Shown here: piece by piece, positions 7,769 through 58,500 of the stretch
How positions within the stretch are numbered: the first letter of the stretch is position 1
Layout of the letters: each line of letters opens with the position of its first letter
Origin: Candidatus Omnitrophota bacterium
Lineage (GTDB): Bacteria; Omnitrophota; Gorgyraeia; Gygaellales; Profunditerraquicolaceae
Reading direction: 5' to 3'
Assembly: GCA_041661605.1 (NCBI GenBank)
Contig: JBAZUE010000001.1
Location: forward strand, 478,928-542,927
Length of the DNA: 64,000 nucleotides
Translations under genes and position numbers: made by a program
The notes under the pieces: model-generated
What the model was told of the DNA's origin: nothing
Database searches by the model: none
Seen by the model: only the letters and a program-made list of their open reading frames with translations

Positions 7769-7841
7769 TGCAAAAATCAGGAAGGATGATTCCAGGCTAA
7801 AAGAAAGTTTTTTGGGTAATCTCCTAGAGATAAACAAGATT

Positions 7842-8726: not shown

Positions 8727-8767
8727 AATACCCCCTTTTGCAATACTTAAGCCTGACTGCTGATTGA

Positions 8768-9349: not shown

Positions 9350-9418
9350 TTTTATCACCTCCTTTATTGATTTTTCCATTTTACAATTATTATTCTCAAA
9401 CATCCCGATCCCTCCTCC

Positions 9419-39355: not shown

Positions 39356-39359
39356 AAGG

Positions 39360-40064
39360 CTAAGCCTTAACTTTAAGATTAATTACAGCCAATATCCGGG
39401 ATCCCTGTGATACTTCAACCTTATAATTATCCGGCAAAATATTTTCAAAAAAAATGTTTCCGGTATCTGAAACATAAGACTCCAGCTCAATTCCGTCTTT
39501 TATAAGCGTTATCCTCAAAGTTTTATCAATCTGCCTGCCCTGTTTATCCTTAATAGTAACCGCAAGGTTGAAAATTTTATCACCTTTATTCTCCACCTTG
39601 ACTAAAACCCTGAATTCTTTTAAGTCCTTCAAGATACTTACCTCTTCTTTAAATTCATTTATCTGCCTGCTGCGTAAAACCGGCGCAGGAATTAACTCCT
39701 GGCCCACAAGCACATCCCCGCTTGTCTGGATAATCTCCAGGGTTTTTTCCTTAAGCATAAGGAATATCTCCAATATATTATCCTTAACATCGCTATCAAT
39801 CATCTTCCTGACTCTTTCTAATAGGACAAGCGGGACATCTTTGCTTAAATGTGCCTCTATTTTAAGTTGGGTACCTAAATATTCGGCGCATATATCGCAT
39901 TTCAGCAAGTGCTCCTGGATCAAATCCCTGTCTAATTTAGGGAGCTTATCCTCAAGAAAAGAAACCAGGGTTTCTTCATTAGGATGCTCCTTTTCAATAA
40001 AACAGGGGGAACCTTTCCATTCCAGATAGATAATCCTGATTATCCTCTCAAAATAATTAAACAT
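39360..40064 (-). CDS. zf-HC2 anti-sigma factor-like protein with C-terminal Ig-like domain
   Basis: LIQEHLLKCDICAEYL (H-x3-C-x2-C). No TM helix evident. C-terminal beta-sandwich-like segment NIFFENILPDNYKVEVSQGSRILAVINLKV. Confidence 0.6.
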   Translation of the reverse strand: MFNYFERIIRIIYLEWKGSPCFIEKEHPNEETLVSFLEDKLPKLDRDLIQEHLLKCDICAEYLGTQLKIEAHLSKDVPLVLLERVRKMIDSDVKDNILEIFLMLKEKTLEIIQTSGDVLVGQELIPAPVLRSRQINEFKEEVSILKDLKEFRVLVKVENKGDKIFNLAVTIKDKQGRQIDKTLRITLIKDGIELESYVSDTGNIFFENILPDNYKVEVSQGSRILAVINLKVKA

Positions 40065-40091
40065 ATACCTTCTCCTGGCTCAATAGACGTA

Positions 40092-40703
40092 TTATTTCAG
40101 AAAATCTAACCTAAAACCTTTCACTTTAAAGCAATCTTGCAATTTTTGAAATATCCTGCTCTTTCGCATATCTACCGCTCCACGGTTAATTTTGAGATAT
40201 TCCCTTATCTGCTCCAGGCTTAAGCCTTGATTTAAAAATAACTCCATAAAATACTGCTCTGCGGGCTCAAGTGAATCAACGCAATCCCGCAGGGTCTTAC
40301 GCCTGTCCTGATCGCTTAAAAACTCAACCGCGTCTTTCGAAAGATCCTTAAGGACATCCTTTAAACTAAGGCCTTGCTCAATTTCAGCGTCAATTGAAAA
40401 CATGGGCTTAAGCTTACGCAAATAGTCAATTGTGAAATTAATCGTGACCTGTCTAAGCCAACTGGCTAAAGAACAGCCGTTTTTTCCCTGATAGCTGGAT
40501 AATTTCTTATAATTATCCTTAATTAAGGAATAAAAGATCTCCTGAAAAATATCTTCAATTTGCTCTTCAGTGAGGGAGCGGCCTTTTACAGCTAAAACAC
40601 TATAGATATAGTTATAAATCAGGCGGGAATAACGTGAGAGGAATTCATTCCAGGATTGCTTGTCCCCTTTGACGCAAGCTTGGACAAACTTTAAGTCGTC
40701 CAT
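40092..40703 (-). CDS. ECF-type RNA polymerase sigma-70 family factor
   Basis: Region 2 (WNEFLSRYSRLIYNYIYSVL) and region 4 HTH (LSLEQIREYLKINRGAVDMRKSRIFQKLQ). Confidence 0.8.
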   Translation of the reverse strand: MDDLKFVQACVKGDKQSWNEFLSRYSRLIYNYIYSVLAVKGRSLTEEQIEDIFQEIFYSLIKDNYKKLSSYQGKNGCSLASWLRQVTINFTIDYLRKLKPMFSIDAEIEQGLSLKDVLKDLSKDAVEFLSDQDRRKTLRDCVDSLEPAEQYFMELFLNQGLSLEQIREYLKINRGAVDMRKSRIFQKLQDCFKVKGFRLDFLK

Positions 40704-47668: not shown

Positions 47669-47764
47669 GGATGTTGACTTAAGGCACTACGCTCGCTGCT
47701 CGGCTTGTCGCCTCGCTACGCTCGCTTAAGTGCCACTTGAATTTTCCTTGCCGGAAAATTCAAG

Positions 47765-47837
47765 TGGAGCTGGGGAGAATCGAACTCCCGACCCCCTCGT
47801 TGCGAACGAGGTGCTCTCCCAACTGAGCTACAGCCCC
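47765..47837 (-). tRNA. tRNA-Ala (anticodon CGC)
   Basis: GGGGCUGUAGCUCAGUUGGGAGAGCACCUCGUUCGCAACGAGGGGGUCGGGAGUUCGAUUCUCCCCAGCUCCA. It folds as a cloverleaf with G3:U70, anticodon loop UUCGCAA and a T-loop GGUUCGAUU-like element. CCA is not encoded. Confidence 0.95.
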
Positions 47838-47864: not shown

Positions 47865-48449
47865 CTAATTCCAGGTCTTGCCAAATCTTACGTTTTCCTG
47901 CTTACCATTAATTTCTATATCCACAGAATCAACATTAACTTTAATAATCCTAAAATCGCCCATCGTGTCCCCTTCAAAAACAACTTTATTATTTATTAAA
48001 ACCGAATTTCTCTTGTTATTAGCGTCAAAATATATATCCTGAAGAGCATATTGTTCTTTTTTAATCTCCAAATTCTTCCCCTTTGTTCCTTCTATCTTTG
48101 ATTTTACATATTTGTACAAAGGGTTTTTAGTTAAAGCGCCCCTGATTTCTTCCCAACCTGCCTGGAATTTTTTATTTATTAACAGATTGAACCCATTGGT
48201 ATATTGAGATCTTTCATTTACCTGAATACCATATGTGCCAAACGCGCAGACCAAGAGAATAACAATAGGTGATAATATTTTCTTAAATAATCCTATTGCT
48301 GTCTTAAATATTTCTACTAGATAATACCGCCAAAAAAAACTTCTTAACGTTTTCTTGCAGGTAGGACATACTTTCCAGGGGGTAGGAAAATATTCGTTGC
48401 ATTTGGGGCAGTATTTCAAAAATTGTTTTTCAAGTTTACCTTTTTCCAT
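47865..48449 (-). CDS. zinc-ribbon / single-TM protein with GspB/PilP-like C-terminal domain
   Basis: CPKCNEYF...CPTCKK, a TM helix, and the C-terminus NSVLINNKVVFEGDTMGDFRIIKVNVDSVDIEINGKQENV (the a.ing.....GD...g..v..I....V.l pattern). Confidence 0.45.
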   Translation of the reverse strand: MEKGKLEKQFLKYCPKCNEYFPTPWKVCPTCKKTLRSFFWRYYLVEIFKTAIGLFKKILSPIVILLVCAFGTYGIQVNERSQYTNGFNLLINKKFQAGWEEIRGALTKNPLYKYVKSKIEGTKGKNLEIKKEQYALQDIYFDANNKRNSVLINNKVVFEGDTMGDFRIIKVNVDSVDIEINGKQENVRFGKTWN

Positions 48450-48485
48450 TTTATTCCTTTTTTAAAGGTGAGAGGATACGAATTT

Positions 48486-49070
48486 TTATTGCGCGGGAGA
48501 ACTAGGGCAAACTAAACGCGTTTTCATGGCAATTTGGGGGTTGTCTGAACTAACCGCAACAGCAGGATCATACCTGCCTACCAAACCAACATCAACTGCC
48601 ATGCCATTATCAGTAATCCGGGCATAAAAACCTGCGGTTGGATAATCCGGCATTACAGTGGCCGAAAAATTACTGATAATTTTTTCACTTAAAACTTCGG
48701 TAGTAGCAATGAATATAACCTTTAAGGCATTACCGTCTAAATAAAAAGTGATCCATGGATCATCAACTAAGTTACCCGGAGTCCTGGGGGTATTTAAATC
48801 CACACGTACCTGAAAACCTGTTTGCACTCCCGCAGCAGGATACCTCCTGATCGCAGGGTTGTCAAATTCTCCGACACCCTGCTGCACATATTTACTTATA
48901 TAGTCAAGAGCATAAGAAATCTGATTCTGCACTTTAACCCGCTTATCCGAACTGATTACATGATTCCTGCTGAATAAATCAATGCTGAAGAAACCCAAAA
49001 GAACCAGCGACATCAAAATTATCGCCATAATCAACTCTATCAGGCTTGAAGCAGATTTGCTCTTAGGCAT
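48486..49070 (-). CDS. prepilin-type minor pseudopilin
   Basis: MPKSKSA|SSLIELIMAIILMSLVLLG is a class III signal-like sequence with E at +5 and Ala at -1. Confidence 0.6.
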   Translation of the reverse strand: MPKSKSASSLIELIMAIILMSLVLLGFFSIDLFSRNHVISSDKRVKVQNQISYALDYISKYVQQGVGEFDNPAIRRYPAAGVQTGFQVRVDLNTPRTPGNLVDDPWITFYLDGNALKVIFIATTEVLSEKIISNFSATVMPDYPTAGFYARITDNGMAVDVGLVGRYDPAVAVSSDNPQIAMKTRLVCPSSPAQ

Positions 49071-49073
49071 TTG

Positions 49074-49499
49074 TTAAGGAGAGACTTCGGTCCAGTTAAT
49101 CGTAACTTTTACCCTGCGCAAATTTGTGCTAAAAGTAGCAACATCATATCGCGCCGTGTAATCAATATTATTTACTTTTCTATGGAGTGCCAACGAAGGA
49201 CACGCTGGATTTTGGTTAGTCCCGCTTGCATCGCAATAAGTGGTGCCAACGGTCAAAGCGTTATTAACCGTATCCCAGTTGTCCTGCCGCACGGCTAATT
49301 GGAGCGGATCAAGAAAAAGCTTACCCATTTCACTGCTGGTCATACGCTCCATGGAATGCAGGACTTGGCGTTTACCAGAAACAAAAACACTAGCTAATCC
49401 GCCCATTACCAGAGCAAATATAACTGTTGATATAATTACCTCAAACAGCGTAGTAGAACGCTTACCGCAGATTAAGGCGGGCATCCCGTACCAGAGCAA
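49074..49499 (-). CDS. prepilin-type minor pseudopilin
   Basis: ..CGKRS|TTLFEVIISTVIFALVMGG, with E at +5 and Ser at -1. Start uncertain (TTG 49499 or ATG 49484). Confidence 0.5.
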   Translation of the reverse strand: MLWYGMPALICGKRSTTLFEVIISTVIFALVMGGLASVFVSGKRQVLHSMERMTSSEMGKLFLDPLQLAVRQDNWDTVNNALTVGTTYCDASGTNQNPACPSLALHRKVNNIDYTARYDVATFSTNLRRVKVTINWTEVSP

Positions 49500-49873
49500 G
49501 TAGGAGCGCTCCCAGTATTAGTTAAAGTCCAAACCCTGCCGCCACTGCCTACGCGCGTAGCAGTAGTTTGGTTTCCAATTCCATCCGCAGTATAACCCCA
49601 AGATACTCCACTAGAAGGCAGGTTAACCTTTAGATAAGTGTTTATATCAGCAATTACGCTGGTAGCGCCGCCCGGAGGATAGTAAGAACCTCCTGACTCC
49701 ATCCTATAAATCTTTTCCGCTGCCTGCATAAGCCCGAGGCTAGCCCTGGCTTCCCTATCCAATGCCCGTTCCCTGCTGGTCGCAAAACCAGGCAAGGCCA
49801 AAGCAGCCAGGACACCAATAATAACGATTACAATCAACAGTTCCATTAAAGTAAAGCTTCTTTTAATCAGCAT
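49472..49873 (-). CDS. type IV pilin / GspG-like pseudopilin
   Basis: MLIKRS|FTLMELLIVIVIIGVLAALALPGF. C-terminal Cys pair PTCSGTGCPP. Confidence 0.75.
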   Translation of the reverse strand: MLIKRSFTLMELLIVIVIIGVLAALALPGFATSRERALDREARASLGLMQAAEKIYRMESGGSYYPPGGATSVIADINTYLKVNLPSSGVSWGYTADGIGNQTTATRVGSGGRVWTLTNTGSAPTCSGTGCPP

Positions 49874-49889
49874 TCTTTAACTACTCCTC

Positions 49890-50270
49890 TTAATAACCCG
49901 CAGAACCGCCCCAGGTACCGCCAACATCCACAGTCTTGGTATAAGCTGCTGCGCCTTGGGGAGTTTTTCCACCGGCAGTACATCTGGTTGCAGTACAGGT
50001 CCCGGTAGCCGCAGAACATGAATAAGAAAAATAATGCGTAGTGGCACAGGCTGAAGGAGCCGACACACCTAAGTTAGCTACTGTCGCATATGCTCCATTC
50101 TCCATGTTTTCAGCTATTTCGGCGCTTCTAAGGGAACCTAATATCAACCTTGCTTCAGCAGCACGGCCTTTTTCAACTACCTTAGTATACTGCGTCATAC
50201 CTACAGAGGCCAGGATACCGACGATAATGATAACTACGATAAGTTCAATAAGCGTAAAACCTTTTCTCAT
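49890..50270 (-). CDS. type IV pilin / GspG-like major (pseudo)pilin
   Basis: ATG 50270 with SD AGGAG. MRKG|FTLIELIVVIIIVGILASVGMTQY is canonical (G-1, F+1, E+5). The C-terminus is Cys-rich. The track ORF (to 50345) includes a duplicated RBS/start. Confidence 0.8.
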   Translation of the reverse strand: MRKGFTLIELIVVIIIVGILASVGMTQYTKVVEKGRAAEARLILGSLRSAEIAENMENGAYATVANLGVSAPSACATTHYFSYSCSAATGTCTATRCTAGGKTPQGAAAYTKTVDVGGTWGGSAGY

Positions 50271-50301
50271 CTTAACTCCTCCTTTTCTCATTTTAACTCC
50301 T
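50260..50301 (-). repeat. 21-bp tandem duplication of the pilin RBS plus start codon
   Basis: ccttttctcatcttaactcct (50260-50280) and ccttttctcattttaactcct (50281-50301), with 1 mismatch. On the coding strand this reads AGGAGTTAAaATGAGAAAAGG AGGAGTTAAgATGAGAAAAGG. Confidence 0.9.
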
Positions 50302-50348
50302 CCGTTGCTTGGAAACATTTTAAACCATATTTTTGGAAATGTCAATAA

Positions 50349-51587
50349 TTATCCTCCGATTTTTGAAATCTCAAATATCGGCAAAAAGATACCCGTAATC
50401 ATAATACCTATAACCCCTCCGATAAAAACCAGCACAAAAGGCTCAAACATAGAAACAAAACGCGCCAGGAAGACCTCGCAATAATCCTGATAAAAAGTGT
50501 TGATCTTTTTAAACATCTGGGGCAGTTCTCCAATCTCTTCCCCGATGCTTACCATTTGCACGAACATGGGGTCAAAAAAAGCGCTTTTCTCCAAAGGTTC
50601 ACGTAAAGATTTTCCCTCGCGCACATCTTCTTTAACTTTACGGATGATATCAGCCATAATCAAATTGCCCACGCTGCGTTCGGATATTTCCAGAGAATAA
50701 AGAATGGGTACCCCCGATTCCAAAAGCGTGGACATTTCCGATGAAAATCTTTCTACGTTCAAAGCTACAAAAAACTCGCCAAATACCGGAATTTTAAACT
50801 TAAAATTCTCAAAATTTCTCCTGCCTGTTTTAGTCTTAACGTATTTCTTAAAAGCAAAGATAATTCCGGCGATACCCAGGATTATCGTAATCATATTAAA
50901 CCTTAAGAAATCACTTACTTTTAATAATATCTGCGTAAGCACGGGCAGGGTGATATTGAACCCCTTGAATATCTCCGCAAAAGTAGGCACTATTTTTACC
51001 GCCATTAAAAACAACGCCGCTAAACCCGCGGTCAAAAGTATACCCGGATAAATCAAAGCCGAGATAATCTTGCCCCTGAACTCGGCGTCCCTTTCCAAAT
51101 ACGTAGCCAGACGGCTTAACACTACTGCCAAATTTCCGCTGGCCTCCCCGCTCTCAACAAGGTTTACCCAAAGATCCGTGAAAACTTTTGGATGTTTGGC
51201 CATTGCCTCATGGAAGCTTAAGCCGGACTCCATGTTTTTTTGTAAATCCAGGACAACAAAGTAAAGTTTTTTACTGACTACCTGTTTAGAGATAATATCC
51301 AGGCTTTTAAGAATGGTAACCCCTGCCCCAAGTAAAGTTGCTAATTGCCGGCAGAAAAGGGTAAGGTCATCAGCGCTGATACTATTACGCTTCTGCTTGA
51401 TTTTGTCTTTGATAACCGGCTTAATTGTGCTGCTCTTAAAAGCTTCGGTATTCTCAGGAATAACACTGATTACAATCAATCCCCGGGATTGAATCCTGCT
51501 TACCACATCTTCCTGATCCAGCCCTTCTTCTATCCCGGTTTCTTTCTTTCCCGAAGTATCTCTGGAAATATAATAAAATTTCGGCAT
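50349..51587 (-). CDS. pilC: type II secretion / type IV pilus platform protein (GspF/PilC family)
   Basis: 412 aa with two T2SSF repeats and 3 TM helices. Motifs LATLLGAGVTILKSL and LLESGVPILYSL. Confidence 0.85.
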   Translation of the reverse strand: MPKFYYISRDTSGKKETGIEEGLDQEDVVSRIQSRGLIVISVIPENTEAFKSSTIKPVIKDKIKQKRNSISADDLTLFCRQLATLLGAGVTILKSLDIISKQVVSKKLYFVVLDLQKNMESGLSFHEAMAKHPKVFTDLWVNLVESGEASGNLAVVLSRLATYLERDAEFRGKIISALIYPGILLTAGLAALFLMAVKIVPTFAEIFKGFNITLPVLTQILLKVSDFLRFNMITIILGIAGIIFAFKKYVKTKTGRRNFENFKFKIPVFGEFFVALNVERFSSEMSTLLESGVPILYSLEISERSVGNLIMADIIRKVKEDVREGKSLREPLEKSAFFDPMFVQMVSIGEEIGELPQMFKKINTFYQDYCEVFLARFVSMFEPFVLVFIGGVIGIMITGIFLPIFEISKIGG

Positions 51588-53302
51588 TACTCCACTCCCA
51601 ATGTCACGGAGAAAACCTCTTCTAATGAAGTTATCCCGCTTTCAACCTTCTTAATCCCTGATTCATATAGAGTTTGCATACCCGCAGCCCTGGCTACCTC
51701 ACGTATTTTTAGATAAGGAGCCCTCTGGTTAATCAAATCCTGAATTTCTATAGTACAAGGCATAACCTCACAAATATTGGTCCTGCCCCTATAACCTGTA
51801 TTATTGCATTTAGGACATCCTTTATGCCGATAGATTAAATCCCCTTTAATTTTAGCGCCCTTTAATTGTTCGATAGTAGGTTCATAAGCCTCTTTACATT
51901 CCGGGCATAGCTTTCTAATCAATCTCTGGGCAATAACCACCAATAACGACGGGCCGAGCATATACGGCTCAACTCCAATATCCATAAGGCGGCTTGCCGC
52001 TGAAGGAGCATCATTAGTATGTAAAGTACTTAAAACCAAATGCCCGGTGAGCGCTGAACGGATACAGATCTGGGAAGTTTCCAAGTCCCTGACTTCCCCC
52101 ACCATCATAATGTCCGGATCCTGGCGCAAAAAACTGCGCAAGGCAGCGGCAAAAGTAAGGCCGACTTCAGGCTTGATCTGAACCTGGTTGATCCCGTCCA
52201 TTTTATACTCTACCGGGTCTTCAACGGTAACAATATTCTTCGAAGGATTCTTGATTTCGTTTAAAATCGCATAAAGAGTAGTTGACTTTCCACTCCCGGT
52301 AGGCCCGGTAACAAAAACTAAACCATACGGCTGGTTAATTGCTTTACGCACATGCTCCAGCTGCGTAGCATCAAAACCGGCAGAGCTTAAATCCAAAACT
52401 TTGTTGCCGCGGTCCAATATCCTCAATACCGCTTTTTCACCATAGATAGTCGGAATAATAGAAACACGGATATCAATAGGCCGGTCATTGATACGCACCA
52501 AAATTGCTCCGTCCTGCGGAAGTCGCTTCTCCGCGATATCCATCTTCGATAAGATCTTTACGCGTGAAACAATCGGCAGGTGCAGATGTTTTGCCGGAGG
52601 AGGTATTTCGCAAAGTTTTCCATCAATGCGATACCTTAAGGAAGTCCTTTCCTTAAAAGGCTCGATATGTATATCCGAAGCGCCTTCTTCAATTGCCTGG
52701 CGGATAATTAAATCCACTATTTTGACCACTGGCGCTTCTTCAGCGCGGGCAATCAGCTTGTCAAGGCTTAACTCCTGGCCTAACTCATCCCCTGTATCCT
52801 GCTCCGTTGTATCAATATCATAACTGGACTCGACAGCATCCCGCAACATCGCGGATTTACCGTAAAATTCCTCAATTGCTTTCTTTATATCCGAACGCGT
52901 GGCAATAACCGGGTTAATTTCACACCCGGTGAGTTTCTTTAGATTGTCTATAAGAATGAAATCCAGAGGATCGAACATTGCCACTGTAAGCGACCTGGCC
53001 GTACGCGATAAAGGCAACACATAATTCTTAAACGCGAACTCCTGCAAGATCAAATGCTCTAATCCCTGGCCAGCCACTGGTTTGAGCATGCCTGTGCCGA
53101 GAGCAAAAAATGGGACATTCAACTGTTTACCTAAAACAGCTACAATCTGCTCCTCTTTAACCATCTCCAGTTTAATCAAGACCTCTCCCAACCTGCCGGA
53201 TTCTTTCCTTTGAACGCTGATAGCTTTTTCCAGCTGGGTGGGCGTAATCAAACCTTCCCTGATAAGGAGTTCCCCGAGTCTTAAATACTTATCTTTTTGC
53301 AT
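51587..53302 (-). CDS. pilB: type II/IV secretion ATPase (GspE/PilB family)
   Basis: N-terminal T2SSE_N (LGELLIREGLITPTQLEKAI), Walker A GPTGSGKST, Asp/His boxes, tetracysteine CPECK...CPKCNNTGYRGR. Confidence 0.9.
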   Translation of the reverse strand: MQKDKYLRLGELLIREGLITPTQLEKAISVQRKESGRLGEVLIKLEMVKEEQIVAVLGKQLNVPFFALGTGMLKPVAGQGLEHLILQEFAFKNYVLPLSRTARSLTVAMFDPLDFILIDNLKKLTGCEINPVIATRSDIKKAIEEFYGKSAMLRDAVESSYDIDTTEQDTGDELGQELSLDKLIARAEEAPVVKIVDLIIRQAIEEGASDIHIEPFKERTSLRYRIDGKLCEIPPPAKHLHLPIVSRVKILSKMDIAEKRLPQDGAILVRINDRPIDIRVSIIPTIYGEKAVLRILDRGNKVLDLSSAGFDATQLEHVRKAINQPYGLVFVTGPTGSGKSTTLYAILNEIKNPSKNIVTVEDPVEYKMDGINQVQIKPEVGLTFAAALRSFLRQDPDIMMVGEVRDLETSQICIRSALTGHLVLSTLHTNDAPSAASRLMDIGVEPYMLGPSLLVVIAQRLIRKLCPECKEAYEPTIEQLKGAKIKGDLIYRHKGCPKCNNTGYRGRTNICEVMPCTIEIQDLINQRAPYLKIREVARAAGMQTLYESGIKKVESGITSLEEVFSVTLGVE

Positions 53303-54848
53303 TTTTGTCGAAATTATTCAAACTGGAATTAATCAAATAATCACGGTTAATATGCGTAACTACATTCTGTTCACGAATAGGCAGGCTGAACCTCTGCATC
53401 TGCTCTAATTTTACCTGGTTACTCTTGACAATCCGGGGAGTAATAAACACCAAAAGCTCCCTTTCTCTGTCCTTATCTTTATTCTTGTGCCTGAACAGTA
53501 AGCCAATTATAGGAATATCCCCTAAAACAGGCAGCTTGGTTATAGTTTCAGAGGTATCATTACGTATCAGGCCTCCGATAACCACTGTTTCACCATCTTT
53601 AATCCTTACTATGGATTTTGTGGAACGTTCTTCAGGATCTTTAAACGTAGTGTTAAAAGTGCTGGTAGATGCATCCTTTACCTTAGGATAAATAAACATG
53701 GTGATCTCCCCGGTATCGGAATTAATCTGAGGAGTTACCCTGAGGGAAACGCCGGTCTCCACTCTTTCGGCGCTGGTGGTAGTTGTTGAAGCCGTGCCCT
53801 GGCCTTGAGTATCGGTAATCTGGCCGATAGCCTCATTAGTAGTGATCTTAATTTCCGCGGGTTCATTATTTAGAGTCATAATCCTCGGCCTGGCTAATAT
53901 CTTAGTATCAGATTGCGATTTCAAGAAGTCAAATTGGATCTGATAAGGATTGCCTTGAGCAGTGCCCGTATCGTCAATAGAACCCGGATTAATATTCAAG
54001 GTCCCATCACCGGTGTTAAAAAGCTTGGTCCAACCGGCATAGGGGAACCCCGTACTTGCGGCAGCGCCAAATATATATGCTGTTAACGGTGTCTGGCCAT
54101 ATTTTACCCCCAGTTTATCTATCGCATTCTTGCTTACATCAAGCATTTCCACCTCTAACATAATTTGGGGAATTTCAATATCAAGAGCGGTAACTACCTG
54201 GATAATGACCTTCATCCGCGCAGGCGTATCCGTAACAATCAAGCTGTTAGTGCGGTAATCCTCAATTAATGAGCCATTAGCGGAAAGGAGCTTCTTGACG
54301 GCATAAGTGATCCCGGATTCATCTTCCACTTTCCATTTACCGGTTGAACTATCCCCTGAAGAAGAACTGCTTGAGGACCCGGAAGTAGACCCGGAGGACC
54401 CGGAAGTAGAGCTAGTGACTATATTTTTTGACTCCTCATCCTTCAGTGAAGAAGATGATACGCTGGCATGTTTTAAATAAAACACCTTGGTGGTTGTTTC
54501 AATTTCTATTTTTCCCAAATCCTTAACCACAAAAATATTAGCCTTTTTGTCAAGTTCATAAGAAAGGTTATTCGCGCTAAAGATCTTATCCATTGCCTGG
54601 CTCAAGGGGACCTTATCCAGGTAAAGAGTTACTTTCCTGTCAGCCACGCCCTCGGAAGCGATAAAATTCATCCCTGACTGCATGGAAAAAATCTTGAGTA
54701 TGTCCTTTATCCCGGCGTCCTGGAAATCCATAGAGATGATCGGCTCAGTTTCAGCGGGAGGCTGCTGCGTCTGCGCATTTAGATGCGGGATAAAAAATAC
54801 GCATACTATTGAAAAAATAAAAGCTAAAGTTAAAAAAGTTTTTTTCAT
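53289..54848 (-). CDS. secretin (GspD/PilQ family)
   Basis: Signal peptide, N-domains, a Ser-rich linker, and the secretin core ending in VPVLGDIPIIGLLFRHK...LLVFITPRIV. Confidence 0.85.
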   Translation of the reverse strand: MKKTFLTLAFIFSIVCVFFIPHLNAQTQQPPAETEPIISMDFQDAGIKDILKIFSMQSGMNFIASEGVADRKVTLYLDKVPLSQAMDKIFSANNLSYELDKKANIFVVKDLGKIEIETTTKVFYLKHASVSSSSLKDEESKNIVTSSTSGSSGSTSGSSSSSSSGDSSTGKWKVEDESGITYAVKKLLSANGSLIEDYRTNSLIVTDTPARMKVIIQVVTALDIEIPQIMLEVEMLDVSKNAIDKLGVKYGQTPLTAYIFGAAASTGFPYAGWTKLFNTGDGTLNINPGSIDDTGTAQGNPYQIQFDFLKSQSDTKILARPRIMTLNNEPAEIKITTNEAIGQITDTQGQGTASTTTTSAERVETGVSLRVTPQINSDTGEITMFIYPKVKDASTSTFNTTFKDPEERSTKSIVRIKDGETVVIGGLIRNDTSETITKLPVLGDIPIIGLLFRHKNKDKDRERELLVFITPRIVKSNQVKLEQMQRFSLPIREQNVVTHINRDYLINSSLNNFDKNAKR

Positions 54849-55318
54849 TATTCCTCCTTATTCCCTTTTATCTTACGTAAAGACGCATCATTACCGGGGG
54901 CAGCCAGATTGGCCGTCCTTCCGCCTAAATTCAAAGTAATTCCCTTTTTCTCTATGCTTACTATTTCGGCTCCGTTTATAGTATCCCCAACTCCTAATAT
55001 CTTATTATTAATAATGACTTGCGAAGTTTTACTGCCCAAGATTACTCCCTGCACTTTAAATTGCCCCAAATCAATCGCTGATTTCTCCGAATTTGCATCC
55101 TCTGGCGGCTCCTGGGCAGCCTTCTCCTCTTTTTCTTTTTTTTCTTTTTCTATGGCTGACTGCAAAAGGTCTCCAAATGGATCGCGAAGGTCTCCGGAGG
55201 TATATTCCATCACTGGGCGAGAAATTACCCCGTCGGGATTGCTATCCGCAAAGACAATAGGCGCAAAGCCCGCAGCAAATAGTAAAATAAACCATAGAAA
55301 TTTATCCGTTCTTCTCAT
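54848..55318 (-). CDS. PilP/GspB-like periplasmic protein
   Basis: Signal/anchor, an acidic KE-rich linker, and the C-terminus FKVQGVILGSKTSQVIINNKILGVGDTINGAEIVSIEKKGITL. Confidence 0.5.
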   Translation of the reverse strand: MRRTDKFLWFILLFAAGFAPIVFADSNPDGVISRPVMEYTSGDLRDPFGDLLQSAIEKEKKEKEEKAAQEPPEDANSEKSAIDLGQFKVQGVILGSKTSQVIINNKILGVGDTINGAEIVSIEKKGITLNLGGRTANLAAPGNDASLRKIKGNKEE

Positions 55319-55319
55319 A

Positions 55320-55847
55320 TTATATACAAATGATTGTGCTTATCTTCAAACTGATATCCAGACCCGCCTCTTCACTCCTATTCAACTGAGTACTAGTAGG
55401 CGTGGAGATGCTGACATCTTCCACAATAAACAAATCCTTGTAATTTTCAACCTTGCTGATGAACTGCCCCAGGGCATGATAGCTCTCAACCCTGACCACG
55501 ATCAAAAACGAAGTTTTTATATACTCCGGATATTTCTGCTCCGTACCCGGCTTAACCGAAACAATCTTAACTTTGGTCCCCTTTGAAATATCGGTCATCG
55601 CGTCGATAACCGAACCCAGGTCCTTCCTGTTAAAAGCCTGCTTATAAGTGTTGATCCTCTTCTCCACCCTGATTAAATTATCTATTACTTCGCTCTTTTT
55701 TATCTCTTCATTTTTGTTTTCTTCTAAAGTAGTAAGCTGCTGGTTTTGCATGTTAAACAGAAAAAGAGCCACGATTAGCGCCAGCAATATTACTCCAGCA
55801 TTTATAACCTTGTTTTTATTCTTGCTGAAGAAGTCCATCGTTATCAT
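55320..55847 (-). CDS. pilO: PilO-like pilus assembly protein
   Basis: ATG 55847 with SD GGAG. One TM helix, a coiled coil, then a ferredoxin-like C-terminus (SFLIVVRVESYHALGQFISKVENYKDLFIV). Confidence 0.6.
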   Translation of the reverse strand: MITMDFFSKNKNKVINAGVILLALIVALFLFNMQNQQLTTLEENKNEEIKKSEVIDNLIRVEKRINTYKQAFNRKDLGSVIDAMTDISKGTKVKIVSVKPGTEQKYPEYIKTSFLIVVRVESYHALGQFISKVENYKDLFIVEDVSISTPTSTQLNRSEEAGLDISLKISTIICI

Positions 55848-57393
55848 TTTTCTTTTTCTCCGGAAAATTTCTGCATGCGATATTAAAAACCGCCACGCTT
55901 TTATCCAAAACCGCCTTACGGTCAACAGAAGTGATGGTTATCTCTTTAAAATTACTGGTAAAAAACTTATTTGCCTTAAGATTGCCCAATAATGTACTTA
56001 CGGCCTCGAATTCCTTATCGCTGTCACCAAGATAAGCCTCCCCTTCAAGAATAACCTCAGGCCGGCCGTCTTCCTTGCGCGTAGAAACAAACTTGGTAAG
56101 CCAAACCCCCTCGGGTAGAACCCGGGGCATGATATCCAGGAAATAAGTGGCATAAAGCTGGTCTTTTATCAAACTATCCAGGTTAGCCAGTTTCTTTTTA
56201 AGATTTTTATCACGGGCAGCTAAAACTATGGAATCATCAGCCTCAGAGATAGAATCAAGCTTCGGCCTTTTATCTTTTATGACGTTTAATTCTTCACGCA
56301 CCGGCATAGTCCTGTATATACCATAACCAAAGGTAAGCGCGCATATTAAAAGACTCAAGGCAATCACTTTGAAATCTACCTTTACCCCTTCCATAAAAGC
56401 AAGGATATCTTCTTTGTTTTTAACGCTTTCAGACCTTACCCTGCTGCTAAAAAGGTTAATTTTTACTTTTAAAGGCAAATCTTTGCAAAGAACAGCCCCG
56501 AAGCTTTTGGCAATGACTGAAGAATACTTAACCCCTTTACCTAAAACTTTGCTGCTATCAATGAATTTCGCTGAAATTCCGGAACTGGCGAAGAAACTCT
56601 TGAGGTCCTCGTGCATATCCTTTCCGGAAAGCACATTAATAGTTTTAATCCCTTTATCCGGGAATTTACGGCGGTAATAATCCTGGGAAACGCGTATTTC
56701 GTTCTTTAACTTATCATACTTCTTCATCCTGTCGTTCTCAGCGGCAGTGTCCAAATCATTAATTCCGGTGGTAAGTACTATATCGCGGCTGAAAAAAGGA
56801 AAACCGTTTTCAGAAACCATGAAATTTATTTCATCGCTATTATCCAAATCAAAACAAAGGCTAGCAATAACCCCTTTTTCCTTTGCTCCGCATAATTTTA
56901 GAAAACGTAAAAGACTGAAAGCTGAATATTCAATAACGTTGATCTTGATATTTAACTGCCTGGAAATAGATATATACTTTTCCAATATTTCCTTCTTTAT
57001 GCCGACAAATAATACGGTATTCAGTTTAGTCTTGTTATCGGCCTCTACCTGAAAACTAAAGGCTAACTCCTCCAGCTTGAAAGGTATATATTTCTTAGCT
57101 TCAAAATTAATCGCGCTCTGCATCTCATTTGACGGCAACTTGGGGATCTCAAAAGTACGGATAATAAGGTCCTGTCCGGATATGCAGATAACCCCATGGT
57201 TGACATCTATATGGTTGGTACGCAAGGCATCCTTGACCAAAGCGGTTATCTTTACGTCTGTGGGCACTTTTTCCTCAAAATTACCGGAAAACAAGCCCCC
57301 CTGGGAGATAACCACACTATTGACCAGCTTCTTGTTGTTTAGCTCTGCCAGACCAATGGAATCAGTCCCAAAATATATACCTAAAGAGTTCAT
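55816..57393 (-). CDS. PilM-PilN fusion (actin-like ATPase domain plus TM plus PilN-like domain)
   Basis: 525 aa. The N-terminal about 330 aa is PilM-like (LGIYFGTDSIGLAEL...). Then a TM helix (VIALSLLICALTFGYGIY) and a periplasmic PilN-like region. Confidence 0.7.
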   Translation of the reverse strand: MNSLGIYFGTDSIGLAELNNKKLVNSVVISQGGLFSGNFEEKVPTDVKITALVKDALRTNHIDVNHGVICISGQDLIIRTFEIPKLPSNEMQSAINFEAKKYIPFKLEELAFSFQVEADNKTKLNTVLFVGIKKEILEKYISISRQLNIKINVIEYSAFSLLRFLKLCGAKEKGVIASLCFDLDNSDEINFMVSENGFPFFSRDIVLTTGINDLDTAAENDRMKKYDKLKNEIRVSQDYYRRKFPDKGIKTINVLSGKDMHEDLKSFFASSGISAKFIDSSKVLGKGVKYSSVIAKSFGAVLCKDLPLKVKINLFSSRVRSESVKNKEDILAFMEGVKVDFKVIALSLLICALTFGYGIYRTMPVREELNVIKDKRPKLDSISEADDSIVLAARDKNLKKKLANLDSLIKDQLYATYFLDIMPRVLPEGVWLTKFVSTRKEDGRPEVILEGEAYLGDSDKEFEAVSTLLGNLKANKFFTSNFKEITITSVDRKAVLDKSVAVFNIACRNFPEKKKNDNDGLLQQE

Positions 57394-57581
57394 ACCTGTT
57401 CTCCTGAAGTATTGGTCCGTTTTTTGCTCCTTAACCAGGTATCGATATCACGGCGGTCAAATCTCCAAACTCCACCTACCTTAATTCCAGAGATCTTACC
57501 CTGGTTAAGCCAGTTATAGATAGTCTGTTTCTTTAATTTCAGGTATTCCGCTAATTCATCAATATCTATTAGTCTCGACAT
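57390..57581 (-). CDS. excisionase/MerR-type helix-turn-helix DNA-binding protein
   Basis: LIDIDELAEYLKLKKQTIYNWLNQGKISGIKVGGVWRFDRRDIDTWL. First gene of the pilM... operon, overlapping pilMN by 4 nt. Confidence 0.8.
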   Translation of the reverse strand: MSRLIDIDELAEYLKLKKQTIYNWLNQGKISGIKVGGVWRFDRRDIDTWLRSKKRTNTSGEQV

Positions 57582-57619
57582 AGTTTTACCTGCTTTACCC
57601 TTAAATTACTGTGGATTTA

Positions 57620-57648
57620 ATTAAAACATAATGGATATCTTTTGTCAA
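57620..57648 (-). promoter_or_regulatory. promoter candidate of the pilus operon
   Basis: On the minus strand: TTGACA (57648-57643), 17-nt spacer ending in TGt, TTTAAT (57625-57620). Confidence 0.4.
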
Positions 57649-57658
57649 GTGTTTTTTT

Positions 57659-57758
57659 ATATAGACTTACTCAAACTTACTTATGGGGAATATTGTCGTC
57701 GGAAGATAGTTTACTTGCTTCGCTGTTTAATATAATAGACTTACTTAATGTTACTTAT
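57659..57758. repeat. direct repeats ATAGACTTACT..N..TTACTTAT (two 26-nt copies plus a partial copy) upstream of the -35
   Basis: Copy 1 is 57659-57684 atatagacttactcaaacttacttat. Copy 2 is 57733-57758 taatagacttacttaatgttacttat (22 of 26 identical, 74-bp spacing). A partial copy agatagtttacttgc lies at 57705-57719. Confidence 0.8.
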
Positions 57759-57818
57759 ATTCTTGGAAGCAGTTCTAATATAGGATAAGGAATAAGGAAA
57801 ACGGCGATTCTTCAGAAA

Positions 57819-58223
57819 CTACGGGGTATAAGTAAAAACAGTTGTGGAATTGATACAAAAGGTTGAACCGCTTGGAGGAGAACAAAGGGCGGCATTACAG
57901 GTTCCTCCAGATGGACAAAAGATAATACGGAACTGCCGGCCAACGATTGAAGAGGGAAAATTAGGGTCGGAAACTAGACAGCCGGCAGGATTAGGGCAAG
58001 AGTTGGTTGGTGAATAGGTCCAGACATTGTTTCTGAGCATTTCTAACGCATAAACCATACCGGCCCTGGCAGCATATTGAGCCTGAATCCGGCTTATCTG
58101 ATGGTGGCTTAAGCGTGATTGGCTAAGCGATATTCTTAATATCACGGTGCACAAGATAGAAACCAGGATTATGGTCACCAAGACGATAAAAAGAACTACT
58201 CCTTTTCTCCTACGATCAGGCAT
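57819..58223 (-). CDS. PilX-N-like minor pilin / pseudopilin (Cys-rich)
   Basis: MPDRRRKG|VVLFIVLVTIILVSILCTVIL...RIQAQYAARAGMVYALEML fits the PilX N-terminal pattern. The C-terminal part has 6 Cys. Confidence 0.55.
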   Translation of the reverse strand: MPDRRRKGVVLFIVLVTIILVSILCTVILRISLSQSRLSHHQISRIQAQYAARAGMVYALEMLRNNVWTYSPTNSCPNPAGCLVSDPNFPSSIVGRQFRIIFCPSGGTCNAALCSPPSGSTFCINSTTVFTYTP

Positions 58224-58422
58224 CTTTCCTTAAAGAAATACGGTAATCATTACTGATTTTAACTAAAATAACGTGCCCCTCACGGGCAAGCCAGCCTAAG
58301 CTCATCAATATATAATCAGGGTTGCGTTCAATCCCCTTGGCTAAATCAGAAAAATTGACCTCTCCGTGCTGATCCAGGTAATGCCATATTTCACCCGCAA
58401 CAATACCGATTTCAATTATCAT
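58216..58422 (-). CDS. small winged-helix protein (DUF2582-like)
   Basis: IGIVAGEIWHYLDQHGEVNFSDLAKGI...ILMSLGWLAREGHVIL, 68 aa. Confidence 0.6.
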   Translation of the reverse strand: MIIEIGIVAGEIWHYLDQHGEVNFSDLAKGIERNPDYILMSLGWLAREGHVILVKISNDYRISLRKDA

Positions 58423-58500
58423 TTTATCTCCTCCTCCATTTGCTACCGGCTGGTAGGTTATAGATGTATTTTATAAATAAACCAGGATAAGTCAACTACT

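Follow-up and report, generated by a model that had tools for sequence, protein, structure and literature searches.

A type IV pilus-like assembly locus with a fused PilM-PilN protein is conserved across Candidatus Omnitrophota

Introduction

What kind of machine is encoded by a compact cluster of pilus-like and T2SS-like genes in an uncultured bacterium, and how unusual is its composition? The question arose from a 64-kb stretch of a Candidatus Omnitrophota genome (the window), for which a preliminary description had proposed a compact type IV pilus/T2SS-like machine and had left its function open. That proposal is supported, and the underlying gene list proved correct, with all component calls upheld by the ORFs, Pfam and NCBIfam matches, and synteny. 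The cluster is the standard type IV pilus assembly locus of uncultured, ultra-small Omnitrophota and is conserved phylum-wide; the observation is real and mostly ordinary, representing a lineage-specific variant.

Organization and distribution of the locus

The locus consists of 15 ORFs, all on the minus strand, between positions 47865 and 58422 of the window (Table 1). Synteny comparison revealed about 30 other Omnitrophota genomes with an identical gene order, in which uvrA and a gene for a TPR protein are followed by DUF2582, the PilX-like pilin, a gap of 190-335 nt and HTH_17, and then by the PilM-PilN fusion, PilO, the PilP-like protein, the secretin, the ATPase, PilC, and the pilins. The Omnitrophota loci have uvrA at one end and, in the five loci whose downstream flank was read, Memo/AMMECR1 at the other; PilM-PilN identity falls to about 40% in the syntenic genomes. 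The composition, described earlier as unusual, is so by comparison with proteobacterial models, but is the norm within Omnitrophota. The TPR neighbour has YbgF/CpoB-like repeats, and Tol-like genes adjoin the TPR gene in other genomes.

Neither pilD nor pilT is present in the 64-kb window, which contains no Peptidase_A24 domain and no second T2SSE-type ATPase, as had been stated for the prepilin peptidase and PilT-type ATPase. Their absence from the locus is typical of it in all relatives, and says nothing of the rest of the genome. The identifiers K02654 and K02669, used below, are taken by us to be PilD and PilT, respectively.

Table 1. Features of the locus, in order of window position.
Feature	Size	Position	Strand	Basis or remark
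Zinc-ribbon accessory protein	194 aa	47865..48449	-	Lineage-restricted
Minor pilin 4	194 aa	48486..49070	-	Class III signal SA/SSLIE; N_methyl E=0.007
Minor pilin 3	~136 aa	49074..49484	-	Class III signal RS/TTLFE; corrected start 49484
Pilin A2, GspG/GspH-like	133 aa	49472..49873	-	N_methyl 24.3 bits; syntenic
Pilin A1		49890..50270	-	N_methyl 31.2 bits
Promoter-like site P3, TTGACA-17-TAAAAT		50317..50345	-	Upstream of pilin genes; 11/12 match
Platform protein PilC/GspF	412 aa	50349..51587	-	T2SSF 190 bits, two stretches
Extension ATPase, PilB/GspE family	571 aa	51587..53302	-	T2SSE 452.8 bits, MshEN 60.5 bits
Secretin	519 aa	53289..54848	-	Secretin 154.8 bits, Secretin_N 40.1 bits
PilP/GspC-HR-like periplasmic coupler	156 aa	54848..55318	-	Sub-threshold matches and gene position
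PilO	175 aa	55320..55847	-	Pfam PilO 26.2 bits (cutoff 22); syntenic in all loci
PilM-PilN fusion	525 aa	55816..57393	-	PilM_2 43.3 bits and PilN 31.2 bits, both above Pfam cutoff
HTH_17/excisionase-family DNA-binding protein	63 aa	57390..57581	-	HTH_17 62.9 bits, TIGR01764 53 bits
Regulatory gap	237 nt	57582-57818	-	Boxes and predicted promoter P2
PilX/GspK-like minor pilin without Glu5	134 aa	57819..58223	-	PilX_N and GspK N-terminus matches
DUF2582 winged-helix protein	68 aa	58216..58422	-	Pfam DUF2582 47 bits (cutoff 24.2)
Promoter-like site P1, TTGACT-16-TAAAAT		58468..58495	-	Upstream of DUF2582 gene; consensus scan, 10/12 matches

The assembly machinery

The proposed fusion of PilM to PilN is borne out by the two Pfam matches within one protein and by structure prediction. 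An actin-like PilM domain (residues 1-305) is followed by the PilN N-terminal motif K311-I-N-L314, a transmembrane helix (341-374), a coiled coil, and a ferredoxin-like PilN domain (415-508). K311, I312, and L314 are conserved, and the fusion retains the PilM-binding peptide of PilN. Foldseek searches with the AlphaFold2 model (pLDDT 73.5) returned PilM structures (5eou, E=1e-18; also 2ych and 3jc8) and GspL/EpsL (about 3e-9), and a sequence search of the PDB returned PilM matches only; both sequence and fold assign the fusion to the PilM type and not to GspL. At 50% identity, fusions of the same length and architecture fall into more than 220 clusters, and all nine named organisms among 20 sampled clusters are Omnitrophota (9/9).

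PilO most likely starts at ATG 55847, in agreement with an independent gene call of 175 aa, and its ORF reaches back to TTG 55925. The PilP-like protein carries a signal peptide without a lipobox, and its residues 87-138 match CdsD_C (25.2 bits), T2SSB (21.6 bits), and GspC (24.4 bits) below threshold; these matches, together with a gene position that in every locus is flanked by pilO and the secretin gene, suggest the PilP-like assignment. The secretin comprises an STN/N0 domain, a single Secretin_N domain with a Ser-rich insert, and the secretin core, and Pfam detected no AMIN domain in it. The NCBIfam scores for GspD (218.8 bits) and PilQ (211.3 bits) both lie below cutoff. The secretin is PilQ-like, and the PDB search placed it nearer to PilQ (Neisseria, 150 bits; Vibrio, 128 bits) than to GspD (about 109 bits or less).

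For the ATPase, the NCBIfam scores for PilB (618.6 bits) and GspE (596.2 bits) are below cutoff, as are those for GspF (338.9 bits) and PilC (334.6 bits) for the platform protein. The ATPase core is 46-52% identical to, and equidistant from, PilB and GspE references, and the full-length protein is collinear with the delta-proteobacterial PilB of Geobacter and Myxococcus, including the MshEN domain. In a small NJ tree, the ATPase clade fell outside the GspE clade (89% bootstrap) and the proteobacterial PilB clade, with its deep placement at 12-18% bootstrap. The sub-cutoff NCBIfam scores and this tree leave the parts outside any one well-described T4aP or T2SS subtype. The N-terminus of the ATPase matches the MshEN cyclic-di-GMP motif (NF053729, 63.9 bits, cutoff 38). 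Its 24-aa motifs span residues 8-31 and 37-60 and are 5 aa apart, in agreement with the published description of a pair of 24-aa motifs joined by a 5-aa spacer (PMC11656802). This MshEN motif is intact and is conserved in 21 ATPase orthologs; a CxxC...CxxC motif is also present in the ATPase.

The zinc-ribbon protein consists of a cytoplasmic zinc ribbon, a transmembrane segment, a periplasmic helical linker, and a GspB/GspC-HR-like beta domain (134-188). All 12 homologs compared keep the four cysteines of the CxxC...CxxC pattern without exception. The second PilP/GspB-like domain noted behind the zinc ribbon is confirmed by similarity of the C-terminal domain to the PilP-like protein (BLASTP E=1e-5) and by structure prediction (pLDDT 54 overall, 71-82 in the C-terminal domain), the top Foldseek matches being GspB 4wfw (E=0.025; 62 aligned columns with an rmsd of 2.0 Å) and the HR domains of GspC (3oss_C) and PulC (6hcg_e). 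Only 13 homologs were found, always at the cluster end. The gene is absent at this position in loci L007 and L023, where Memo/AMMECR1 follows, and after minor pilin 4 in loci L012, L013, L018, L028, and L032. The protein is an accessory of a narrow sublineage and no conserved part of the machine, other genes replacing it in close relatives.

Pilins

Pilin A1 is probably the major pilin. It is the first gene after P3, occurs in one to three tandem copies in relatives, and matches PilA_Myxo (41 bits) and GspG (36.6 bits) below threshold; its start is most likely at 50270, or at 50291, an alternative created by a 21-nt duplication. Pilin A2 also matches GspG below threshold (41.3 bits). Minor pilin 3 has no Pfam or NCBIfam family match, the class III signal motif being its sole basis, and orthologs share both this motif and the position of the gene. 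Minor pilin 4 has orthologs in relatives, a weak match to the pseudopilin HpsC, and an N_methyl match below cutoff. The PilX-like pilin has a hydrophobic N-terminal segment (RRKG/VVLFIVL) with sub-cutoff matches to PilX_N (21.9 bits, cutoff 25.5) and the GspK N-terminus (25.6 bits), and is found in synteny in every locus (32-58% identity).

Promoters and small DNA-binding proteins

The regulatory gap contains distal AGTAAGT-type boxes at about 57731-57760, a proximal tandem box, AAGTAAGTTTGAGTAAGTCT, at 57663-57682, an A-tract, and the predicted promoter P2, with a -35 element TTGACA (57643-57648) and a -10 element TTTAAT (57620-57625) separated by a 17-nt spacer with TGT at its end. An alignment of 17 loci revealed the near-invariant pattern taAGTAAgTnTnaGTAAg...TATATAAAAAAACACTTGACAA...TTATGTTTTAATTAA, variants of which are present in all other loci. 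Each locus has a single tandem box, some 100 nt ahead of the start codon (ATG) of HTH_17. The window contains three exact matches to the box, all of them inside the gap, and the 32-nt promoter pattern occurs once in the window (0 expected); no Rfam family matched the gap. The direct repeats have a 10-bp period and lie just upstream of the promoter of HTH_17 itself. The gap is predicted to hold a promoter with tandem AGTAAGT boxes, conserved across the phylum. We know of no earlier description of the AGTAAGT box sequence. P1 and P3 may likewise act as promoters: the TTGAC(T/A)...TATAAAAT arrangement is kept in the TPR-DUF2582 spacer of most loci, and TTGACA...TAAAAT, the best consensus match in the region, recurs in about 10 loci immediately downstream of the pilC stop.

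HTH_17 opens the main operon, and no other protein of the locus is as well conserved, with a median identity in distant loci of 80%, compared with 78.5% for UvrA and 44% for PilMN. DUF2582, found at this position in every locus, has a median identity of 71% in distant loci, and its nearest solved structures are the uncharacterised proteins 2l02 and 2l01. The suggested translational coupling of small DNA-binding proteins to structural genes holds for both: the stop codon of HTH_17 and the start codon of pilMN share the sequence ATGA, and the start of the PilX-like gene overlaps the DUF2582 stop by 8 nt. The ATGA junction is present in 17/17 other loci examined, the HTH_17 stop inside ATGA having been read only in the window.

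Model and alternative explanations

The locus is probably a chromosomal, vertically inherited T4aP-like assembly locus common to Candidatus Omnitrophota. This working model takes the gene identities as observed, and draws interactions and function from homologous T4aP and T2SS machines. Three promoters would drive three units: P1, DUF2582 and the PilX/GspK-like tip pilin; P2, HTH_17, pilMN, pilO, the pilP-like gene, the secretin gene, pilB, and pilC; and P3, the pilins. Within the P2 unit, four junctions overlap (HTH_17-pilMN, pilMN-pilO, secretin-ATPase, and ATPase-pilC) and two are head-to-tail (pilO-pilP-like and pilP-like-secretin). A hexameric PilB-type ATPase would dock on the cytoplasmic actin-like domain of the membrane-spanning PilM-PilN fusion and turn the PilC platform, with assembly made responsive to cyclic-di-GMP by the MshEN motif. 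The PilN domain would pair with PilO, and the HR domain of the PilP-like protein would link this ring to the N0 domain of the short outer-membrane secretin, which the GspB-like zinc-ribbon protein probably also contacts in this sublineage. Four minor pilins (A2, 3, 4, and the Glu5-less PilX-like protein) may prime a fibre of pilin A1. The prepilin peptidase, and PilT if any, would be encoded elsewhere, and the locus most likely yields a surface pilus that would serve adhesion to surfaces or host cells.

HTH_17, and perhaps DUF2582, may bind the AGTAAGT direct repeats just upstream of P2, leading to autoregulation of the operon. A precedent is BldC, a small excisionase/MerR-like relative of 68 residues, which regulates transcription by assembling cooperatively, as multimers, on direct repeats (PMC5859096). 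As in BldC/Xis-type proteins, HTH_17 is a stand-alone 63-aa excisionase-family HTH, and conserved direct repeats adjoin the promoter of its gene; unlike BldC, it matches the BldC model weakly (19 bits), and its DNA binding is putative.

By sequence and fold, PilM, PilN, PilO, the PilQ-like secretin, and the PilB-like ATPase are of the T4aP kind, not GspL/GspM, and pilin A1, with its own strong predicted promoter and variable tandem copy number, also favors a T4aP. Several observations count against this explanation: no part reaches the curated T4aP, T2SS, or MSH equivalog cutoffs of NCBIfam; the single locus (T4aP are usually encoded in several; PMC6668835), the PilM-PilN fusion, and the GspC/GspB-like domains are features of T2SS or MSH; the ATPase core is equidistant from PilB and GspE, and its deep placement in the tree has low bootstrap values; the PilP-like assignment depends on sub-threshold matches and gene position; and the secretin lacks AMIN domains.

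A T2SS-like secretion system, in which a short periplasmic pseudopilus pushes folded proteins (adhesins, hydrolases, or anti-host effectors) through the secretin, is unlikely. The fusion does share its architecture with GspL/PulL (PMC10191384), but is PilM-type, and its partner matches PilO in Pfam, not GspM. The PilP-like and zinc-ribbon proteins match GspC, GspB, and HR domains best, but the locus has no PDZ-bearing GspC, full-size GspK, or GspN, and the secretin has just one Pfam N-domain after N0. GspD and GspF score marginally above PilQ and PilC in NCBIfam, and the locus is one compact unit without pilT; the ATPase, however, lies outside the GspE clade. A Bacteroidetes system that clusters with T4aP has been described as a T2SS (Denise et al., PMC6668835), so that clade does not fix function. 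Variable tandem pilin copies behind their own strong predicted promoter would be expected of an exposed fibre rather than of a pseudopilus, the window ORFs beside the locus include no obvious secreted substrates, and expressed type-4a pili are reported by Seymour et al. 2023 (Nat Microbiol, PMC10066038) for an Omnitrophota species, V. archaeovorus LiM.

There is a slim chance that the fibre is a DNA-uptake (competence) pilus, which would bind extracellular DNA and retract to a ComEA/ComEC pathway, supplying a genome-reduced organism with nucleotides or genes; such a role is compatible with adhesion. In the PDB, the secretin has as neighbours PilQ proteins labelled "pilus biogenesis and competence", and short-PilQ T4aP-type machines mediate transformation in Thermus, Neisseria, and Vibrio. 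Matches to the ComGA and ComGB/ComGC models are below threshold, but ComGA, at 249 bits (cutoff 300), is far below the PilB score, and no comEA, comEC, or dprA was recognised on reading through the window ORFs. The locus includes genes for two DNA-binding proteins, but HTH_17 and DUF2582 lack signal peptides and therefore cannot meet incoming DNA in the periplasm, and the conserved putative operator beside HTH_17 speaks for a regulatory role.

An MSH-type (mannose-sensitive haemagglutinin-like) pilus, that is, a T4aP-derived, single-locus, cyclic-di-GMP-gated adhesion pilus, would fit the single locus without pilT and the MshEN motif, MSH having arisen from T4aP by PilT loss (PMC10191384), but is highly improbable: the MshL model scores 137 bits (cutoff 250), well below PilQ and GspD, there is no MshM and no MshN (the repeats of the neighbouring TPR protein are YbgF/CpoB-like), and MshEN domains also occur in the T4aP PilB of Myxococcus and Clostridium (PMC11656802).

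Comparison with known systems

The Vibrio cholerae MSHA pilus resembles the Omnitrophota locus in the cyclic-di-GMP-binding MshEN N-terminus of its ATPase MshE, where a 5-aa spacer again separates two 24-aa motifs, and in being a single locus without pilT; it differs in its MshM and MshN, absent here, and the secretin and ATPase of the Omnitrophota locus do not score as an MshL/MshE-type system. In the T2SS (GspC-M; GspL; GspB), GspL/PulL corresponds to the PilM-PilN fusion (PMC10191384), HR-domain couplers to the secretin N0 domain and single loci are common to both, and GspB resembles the zinc-ribbon protein in its membrane anchor and C-terminal HR-like domain (fold match 4wfw). Unlike GspL, the Omnitrophota fusion is PilM-like and still has the INL peptide of PilN, and is therefore an independent, later fusion. 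PilO takes the place of GspM, the ATPase lies outside the GspE clade, and a PDZ domain, a GspA partner, and a large GspK are absent.

All core parts of the canonical T4aP of Myxococcus xanthus, Pseudomonas aeruginosa, and Thermus thermophilus (PilMNOPQ, PilB, PilC, PilA, and minor pilins) are present, and the parts are nearest to PilM (5eou, 2ych, and 3jc8), PilQ, and Geobacter/Myxococcus PilB including MshEN. In contrast to the canonical systems, which usually occupy several loci (PMC6668835), a single locus holds all but pilD and pilT; PilM and PilN are joined in a single chain; the secretin, a short one, has no AMIN domains; PilY1, TsaP, and a PilF/Tgl-type pilotin are absent from the locus; and the PilP-like protein is no lipoprotein, with all scores below equivalog cutoffs.

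The closest known systems are the T4aP clusters of the same phylum, which, according to Seymour et al. 2023 (PMC10066038), occur in nearly all Omnitrophota genomes of all classes, and are almost certainly of the same locus type. That study reports presence or absence only, includes K02654 and K02669 in the KO lists of two genomes, and describes a non-respiratory F-type ATPase that often adjoins the locus and is absent from the window; its searched text holds no PilM-PilN fusion, HTH_17/DUF2582 genes, promoter/operator, or MshEN motif. The existence of Omnitrophota T4aP loci has therefore been known since 2023, and what is new is the fused PilM-PilN protein, a motor that by its motif would sense cyclic-di-GMP, and a highly conserved small DNA-binding protein with a putative operator.

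Gene Content and Arrangement

The pilus cluster comprises 15 co-directional ORFs (see the table), and family searches confirmed the gene list of the preliminary description. Matches were obtained to DUF2582 (47 bits, Pfam), to the HTH_17 family (62.9 bits) and the excisionase model TIGR01764 (53 bits) for the same 63-aa protein (HTH_17), to PilM_2 and PilN, to PilO, to a secretin with STN and Secretin_N domains, to T2SSE with MshEN (the extension ATPase), to T2SSF (the platform protein, PilC), and to N_methyl in two pilins. Weaker but consistent evidence came from a PilX_N/GspK N-terminal match for a 134-aa protein, a T2SSB/CdsD_C/GspC-HR match for a 156-aa PilP-like protein, and class III signal motifs in two minor pilins. 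The proposed coupling of the small DNA-binding proteins to structural genes was borne out, as the HTH_17 stop and the pilMN start overlap in an ATGA, and DUF2582 overlaps the PilX-like gene by 8 nt. A gap of 237 nt separates the PilX-like and HTH_17 genes. Between HTH_17 and pilC, overlaps of 1-32 nt occur at four gene junctions, and the pilO/pilP-like and pilP-like/secretin junctions abut head to tail without overlap.

The class III-type leaders of all five pilin-like proteins would require a prepilin peptidase. Scanning the multi-pass membrane proteins of at least 120 aa turned up no Peptidase_A24, and the 64-kb window holds no second T2SSE-type ATPase, in agreement with the earlier statement that the window holds neither a prepilin peptidase nor a PilT-type ATPase.

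Features of the window and of two related loci, with their coordinates
Feature	Sequence	Positions	Strand	Remarks
Pilus cluster	Window	47865-58422	-	DUF2582 to zinc-ribbon gene
Promoter-like site	Window	58468-58495	-	Upstream of DUF2582
Tandem boxes, gap promoter	Window	57663-57682		AGTAAGTnTnAGTAAG; followed by an A-tract
TTGACA, gap promoter	Window	57643-57648		Followed by a 17-nt spacer ending in TGT
TTTAAT, gap promoter	Window	57620-57625		
HTH_17 match to MAD1 HTH model	Window	57390-57581	-	Sub-cutoff
Promoter-like site	Window	50317-50345	-	Upstream of pilin A1
Tandem duplication, pilin A1	Window	~50255-50296	-	21 nt, over ribosome-binding site and ATG; GGAGGAGTTAAAATGAGAAAA and GGAGGAGTTAAGATGAGAAAA
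Zinc-ribbon gene	Window	47865-48449	-	194 aa; last gene of cluster
tRNA-Ala (anticodon CGC)	Window	47764-47837	-	Directly downstream of zinc-ribbon gene
Sigma-70-family, zf-HC2 and TPR genes	Window	37160-40703	-	Trio
838-aa protein and three neighbours	Window	4995-10852	-	
Probable major pilin genes	L010	12146-13034		Two tandem copies
Probable major pilin genes	L012	17088-18281		Three tandem copies

The PilM-PilN Fusion

The claim that PilM is fused to PilN was upheld by the presence of PilM_2 and PilN in one protein of 525 aa (PilMN) and by the structure prediction that had been proposed for it. The AlphaFold2 model (pLDDT 73.5) shows both domains: an actin-like domain (1-305), a linker, a transmembrane helix (341-374), a coiled coil, and a ferredoxin-like domain (415-508). 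Foldseek ranked PilM first (5eou, E=1e-18; 2ych; 3jc8), followed by FtsA and then by the cytoplasmic domains of GspL/EpsL (~3e-9), and T4aP PilM was the only kind of match in a PDB sequence search. Directly after the actin-like domain lies a conserved K311-I312-N313-L314 motif with an invariant L314, which we interpret as the INLLP-type N-terminal peptide that PilN uses to bind PilM in PilM:PilN structures such as 5eou and 2ych. Its retention marks PilMN as a simple end-to-end fusion of pilM and pilN.

Distribution and Conserved Gene Order

PilMN has hundreds of relatives of 500-525 aa, and all of the named ones belong to Candidatus Omnitrophota. When 20 distant cluster representatives were looked up, each of the nine clusters with an organism name was from Omnitrophota. 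A synteny scan with one genome per species returned 32 loci, 31 of them Omnitrophota-type, although a few bear other bin labels. All sufficiently long loci share the order uvrA, an 824-aa TPR protein, DUF2582, PilX-like, a gap of 190-335 nt, HTH_17, PilMN, PilO, PilP-like, secretin, ATPase, PilC, pilin A1 (one to three copies), pilin A2, minor pilin 3, and minor pilin 4. A Memo/AMMECR1 gene follows downstream in five loci among those whose flank was read (L007, L023, L032, L034, and L036). The shared gene order and this flank therefore identify the locus as chromosomal and vertically inherited within the phylum rather than as an island. All parts save pilD and pilT are contiguous in the window and in about 30 relatives, and no genome of the scan has either gene within 10 kb of the locus.

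In the window, a tRNA-Ala gene lies between the pilus cluster and Memo/AMMECR1. The window has a single copy of the probable major pilin gene, to which the tandem copies in L010 and L012 are 81-86% identical. Pilin A1 carries a tandem duplication that creates two possible starts, with the leader MRKG or MRKGGVKMRKG; it was not seen in the relatives whose sequences were compared. Farther downstream, a sigma-70-family gene, a gene for a 234-aa protein with a weak zf-HC2 (anti-sigma-like) match, and a gene for a 731-aa TPR protein form a trio that is syntenic with the locus, recurring downstream of it in L034 and L036, where the orthologs of the TPR protein have CHAT and TPR domains. Elsewhere in the window, an 838-aa protein with a T2SS-T3SS_pil_N match ('pilus formation protein N-terminal region', 33 bits) and SdrD_B-like domains is encoded beside three proteins (294, 211, and 477 aa) that have N-terminal hydrophobic signal-like segments and no Pfam match; these four may constitute a surface-fibre or adhesin cluster of their own.

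The upstream 824-aa TPR protein was considered as a pilotin or MshN and is treated as a neighbour. It has YbgF/CpoB/BamD-like repeats and matches Tgl with 24 bits only. In three genomes (L019, L021, and L024), a block of 2.0-2.4 kb separates its gene from DUF2582, encoding TolQ/ExbB-like, TolR/ExbD-like, and TonB/TolA-like proteins (read by eye) and a small protein ending in CxxC...CxxC. This placement associates the TPR protein with a Tol-like system, not with the pilus.

The Zinc-Ribbon Protein

The last gene of the cluster had been described as encoding a second PilP/GspB-like domain behind a zinc ribbon, and structure prediction had been proposed for it as well. In the resulting model (overall pLDDT 54), the C-terminal beta domain is the sole confident part (pLDDT 71-82). 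Its top fold matches were GspB (4wfw), the GspC HR domain (3oss_C), and the PulC HR domain (6hcg_e), with an rmsd of ~2 Å over ~62 columns and E-values of 0.025-0.3. The protein also resembles the PilP-like protein of the same cluster (E=1e-5), and together these matches support the original domain call. The four cysteines of the ribbon are invariant. Pfam T2SSB did not match the protein, and there is no GspA-like gene near its gene. To our knowledge, a zinc ribbon is not a feature of GspB.

A core role for this protein was rejected. Its family comprises only 13 proteins (52-100% identity), each encoded at the cluster's distal end. In relatives whose PilMN is 76% identical, another gene occupies this position, and more distant relatives have none there. 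We conclude that the zinc-ribbon protein is a sublineage-specific accessory outside the conserved machine, plausibly providing an extra contact to the secretin.

Promoters and HTH_17, a Putative Regulator

The 237-nt gap contains a promoter whose sequence is nearly invariant throughout the phylum. Each locus has the tandem box once, at a constant place, and another two boxes are found ~60-80 nt farther upstream than this proximal pair. The three exact box matches in the window all fall within the gap, and the 32-nt promoter pattern occurs nowhere else in the window. The promoter-like sites before DUF2582 and pilin A1 are conserved in many loci, though not in all. An Rfam E-value scan, which returned solely the tRNA-Ala downstream of the cluster, disposed of a riboswitch or other known RNA in the gap.

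By median identity among distant loci, HTH_17 (80%) is the most conserved protein of the locus, compared with 78.5% for UvrA, 74% for the ATPase, 71% for DUF2582, and 44% for PilMN. BldC, an excisionase/MerR-like protein of 68 residues, binds direct repeats cooperatively (PMC5859096). Because a very conserved regulator-like protein is accompanied by an equally conserved direct-repeat element, and given the BldC precedent, the most economical reading is that HTH_17 would regulate its own expression through the direct repeats of its promoter. HTH_17 also scored 72.5 bits against the HTH model of the anti-phage MADS protein MAD1 (cutoff 80), which probably reflects shared similarity of the excisionase fold; no MADS genes were noted in its vicinity.

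Class Assignment

The components were compared with the models of the established systems. PilM_2, PilN, and PilO all exceed their Pfam cutoffs, and the closest fold is that of PilM, as in T4aP; a candidate PilP equivalent was recognized by sub-threshold HR-domain matches and gene position. The fused architecture resembles GspL, but the sequences match PilM, PilN, and PilO only, with no GspL/GspM assignment. Of the domains of GspC, only an HR-like one is present (24 bits to GspC), and no PDZ domain was found.

For the ATPase, secretin, and platform protein, the NCBIfam scores for T4aP and T2SS were nearly tied, and all were below cutoff. The ATPase (T2SSE domain, 452.8 bits) is collinear over its full length with PilB of Geobacter (517 bits) and Myxococcus (503 bits); it scored 618.6 bits against TIGR02538 (PilB, cutoff 675.65) and 596.2 bits against TIGR02533 (GspE, cutoff 630.25). 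The secretin (core 154.8 bits) scored 211.3 bits against TIGR02515 (PilQ, cutoff 284.35) and 218.8 bits against the GspD model, below its cutoff. Its nearest solved structures are PilQ (150 and 128 bits, versus at most 109 for GspD), although Pfam detected no AMIN domain in it, and it identified N0 and one N-domain rather than the N0-N3 of GspD. The platform protein scored 334.6 bits (PilC) and 338.9 bits (GspF), both below cutoff. Among the five pilin-like genes, GspG scores were 36-41 bits (cutoff 88.85), and the GspK match covers only the N-terminal 60 residues of the 134-aa protein.

The ATPase part of the proposed phylogeny against reference systems was carried out as a small neighbor-joining tree of the ATPase core with GspE and PilB references (371 columns, 19 taxa, 100 bootstraps; three references transcribed by hand from HMMER alignments). 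The Omnitrophota ATPases formed a clade (100%) outside both the GspE clade (89%) and the Acinetobacter/Myxococcus/Geobacter PilB clade (100%), with a clostridial ATPase as its sister (72%). The core is 46-52% identical to every reference, and deeper nodes had bootstraps of 12-18%. A tree of this size suffices to exclude membership of the two proteobacterial clades, though not to place the Omnitrophota clade. Placement in a well-described subtype with the same architecture had been named beforehand as decisive against the preliminary description; the near-tied, sub-cutoff scores and the position of the ATPase outside both clades therefore do not bear it out.

Predicted Cyclic-di-GMP Input and Probable Function

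In the published MshEN layout, a 5-aa spacer separates two 24-aa motifs (PMC11656802). The N-terminus of the ATPase fits it exactly, with RLGELLIREGLITPTQLEKAISVQ at residues 8-31, the spacer RKESG at 32-36, and RLGEVLIKLEMVKEEQIVAVLGKQ at 37-60. The motif is conserved in 21 orthologs, and the ATPase scored 63.9 bits against NF053729 (cutoff 38). Pilus assembly would accordingly be predicted to be under cyclic-di-GMP control, and a cyclic-di-GMP-responsive adhesion pilus is the best-supported function.

The locus may instead serve in secretion or DNA uptake. A competence (Com) pilus, built from ComGA/ComGB/ComGC-type parts without a secretin, fits poorly: a secretin is present, the ATPase scored 249 bits against ComGA (cutoff 300), and no comEA or comEC was recognized on reading the ORFs of the window. 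It is improbable, in our estimation, that the machine is a second, independent T2SS-like device derived from a T4aP ancestor that exports effectors or adhesins onto host cells. Such a device would combine its own PilM-PilN fusion with a PilN docking peptide, HR couplers of the GspC/GspB kind, and a single locus without PilT, and its expression would be set by a dedicated phylum-wide switch, HTH_17 with AGTAAGT repeats. Classification as an MSH pilus was rejected, as the secretin scored 137 bits against MshL (cutoff 250), MshN is missing, and no MshM is present at the locus.

Attachment to hosts or prey has been proposed as the role of Omnitrophota pili (PMC10066038). Seymour et al. (2023) found T4aP clusters in nearly all Omnitrophota and reported that V. 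archaeovorus expresses type-4a pili (PMC10066038). The presence of a pilus locus in the phylum was thus already reported; the finding is real and rightly described, and this is the ordinary pilus locus of the phylum. A literature search found no prior description of the fusion, the HTH_17 and DUF2582 genes, the operator, or the MshEN motif in Omnitrophota. We take K02654, K02669, and K02663 to denote PilD, PilT, and PilN, respectively. The KO lists of two Omnitrophota genomes contain K02652, K02653, K02654, K02662, and K02669, but not K02663 (PMC10066038), which is consistent with a location of pilD and pilT elsewhere and with a PilN concealed in the fused PilM.

Omnitrophota are uncultured, ultra-small, and probably host-dependent, and the analysis provides a precise parts list of their pilus machine with several directly testable handles, one of which is the predicted cyclic-di-GMP input on the motor. 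HTH_17, more conserved than UvrA, and its equally conserved putative direct-repeat operator could mark when cells make pili. The fusion with its PilN docking peptide offers a snapshot of the step that yielded GspL in the T2SS, and a ready construct for structural work. The general picture of type IV filament biology is unchanged.

Comparison with Known Systems

T4aP genes are usually distributed among several loci (Denise et al. 2019, PMC6668835), whereas those of Omnitrophota occupy a single one. GspL of the T2SS is analogous to a PilM-PilN fusion (PMC10191384; PMC4471445), but the Omnitrophota fusion is independent of it. The parts of the system are T4aP-like and its compactness is T2SS/MSH-like; the locus represents a lineage-specific variant within the T4aP/T2SS family rather than a new type of system.
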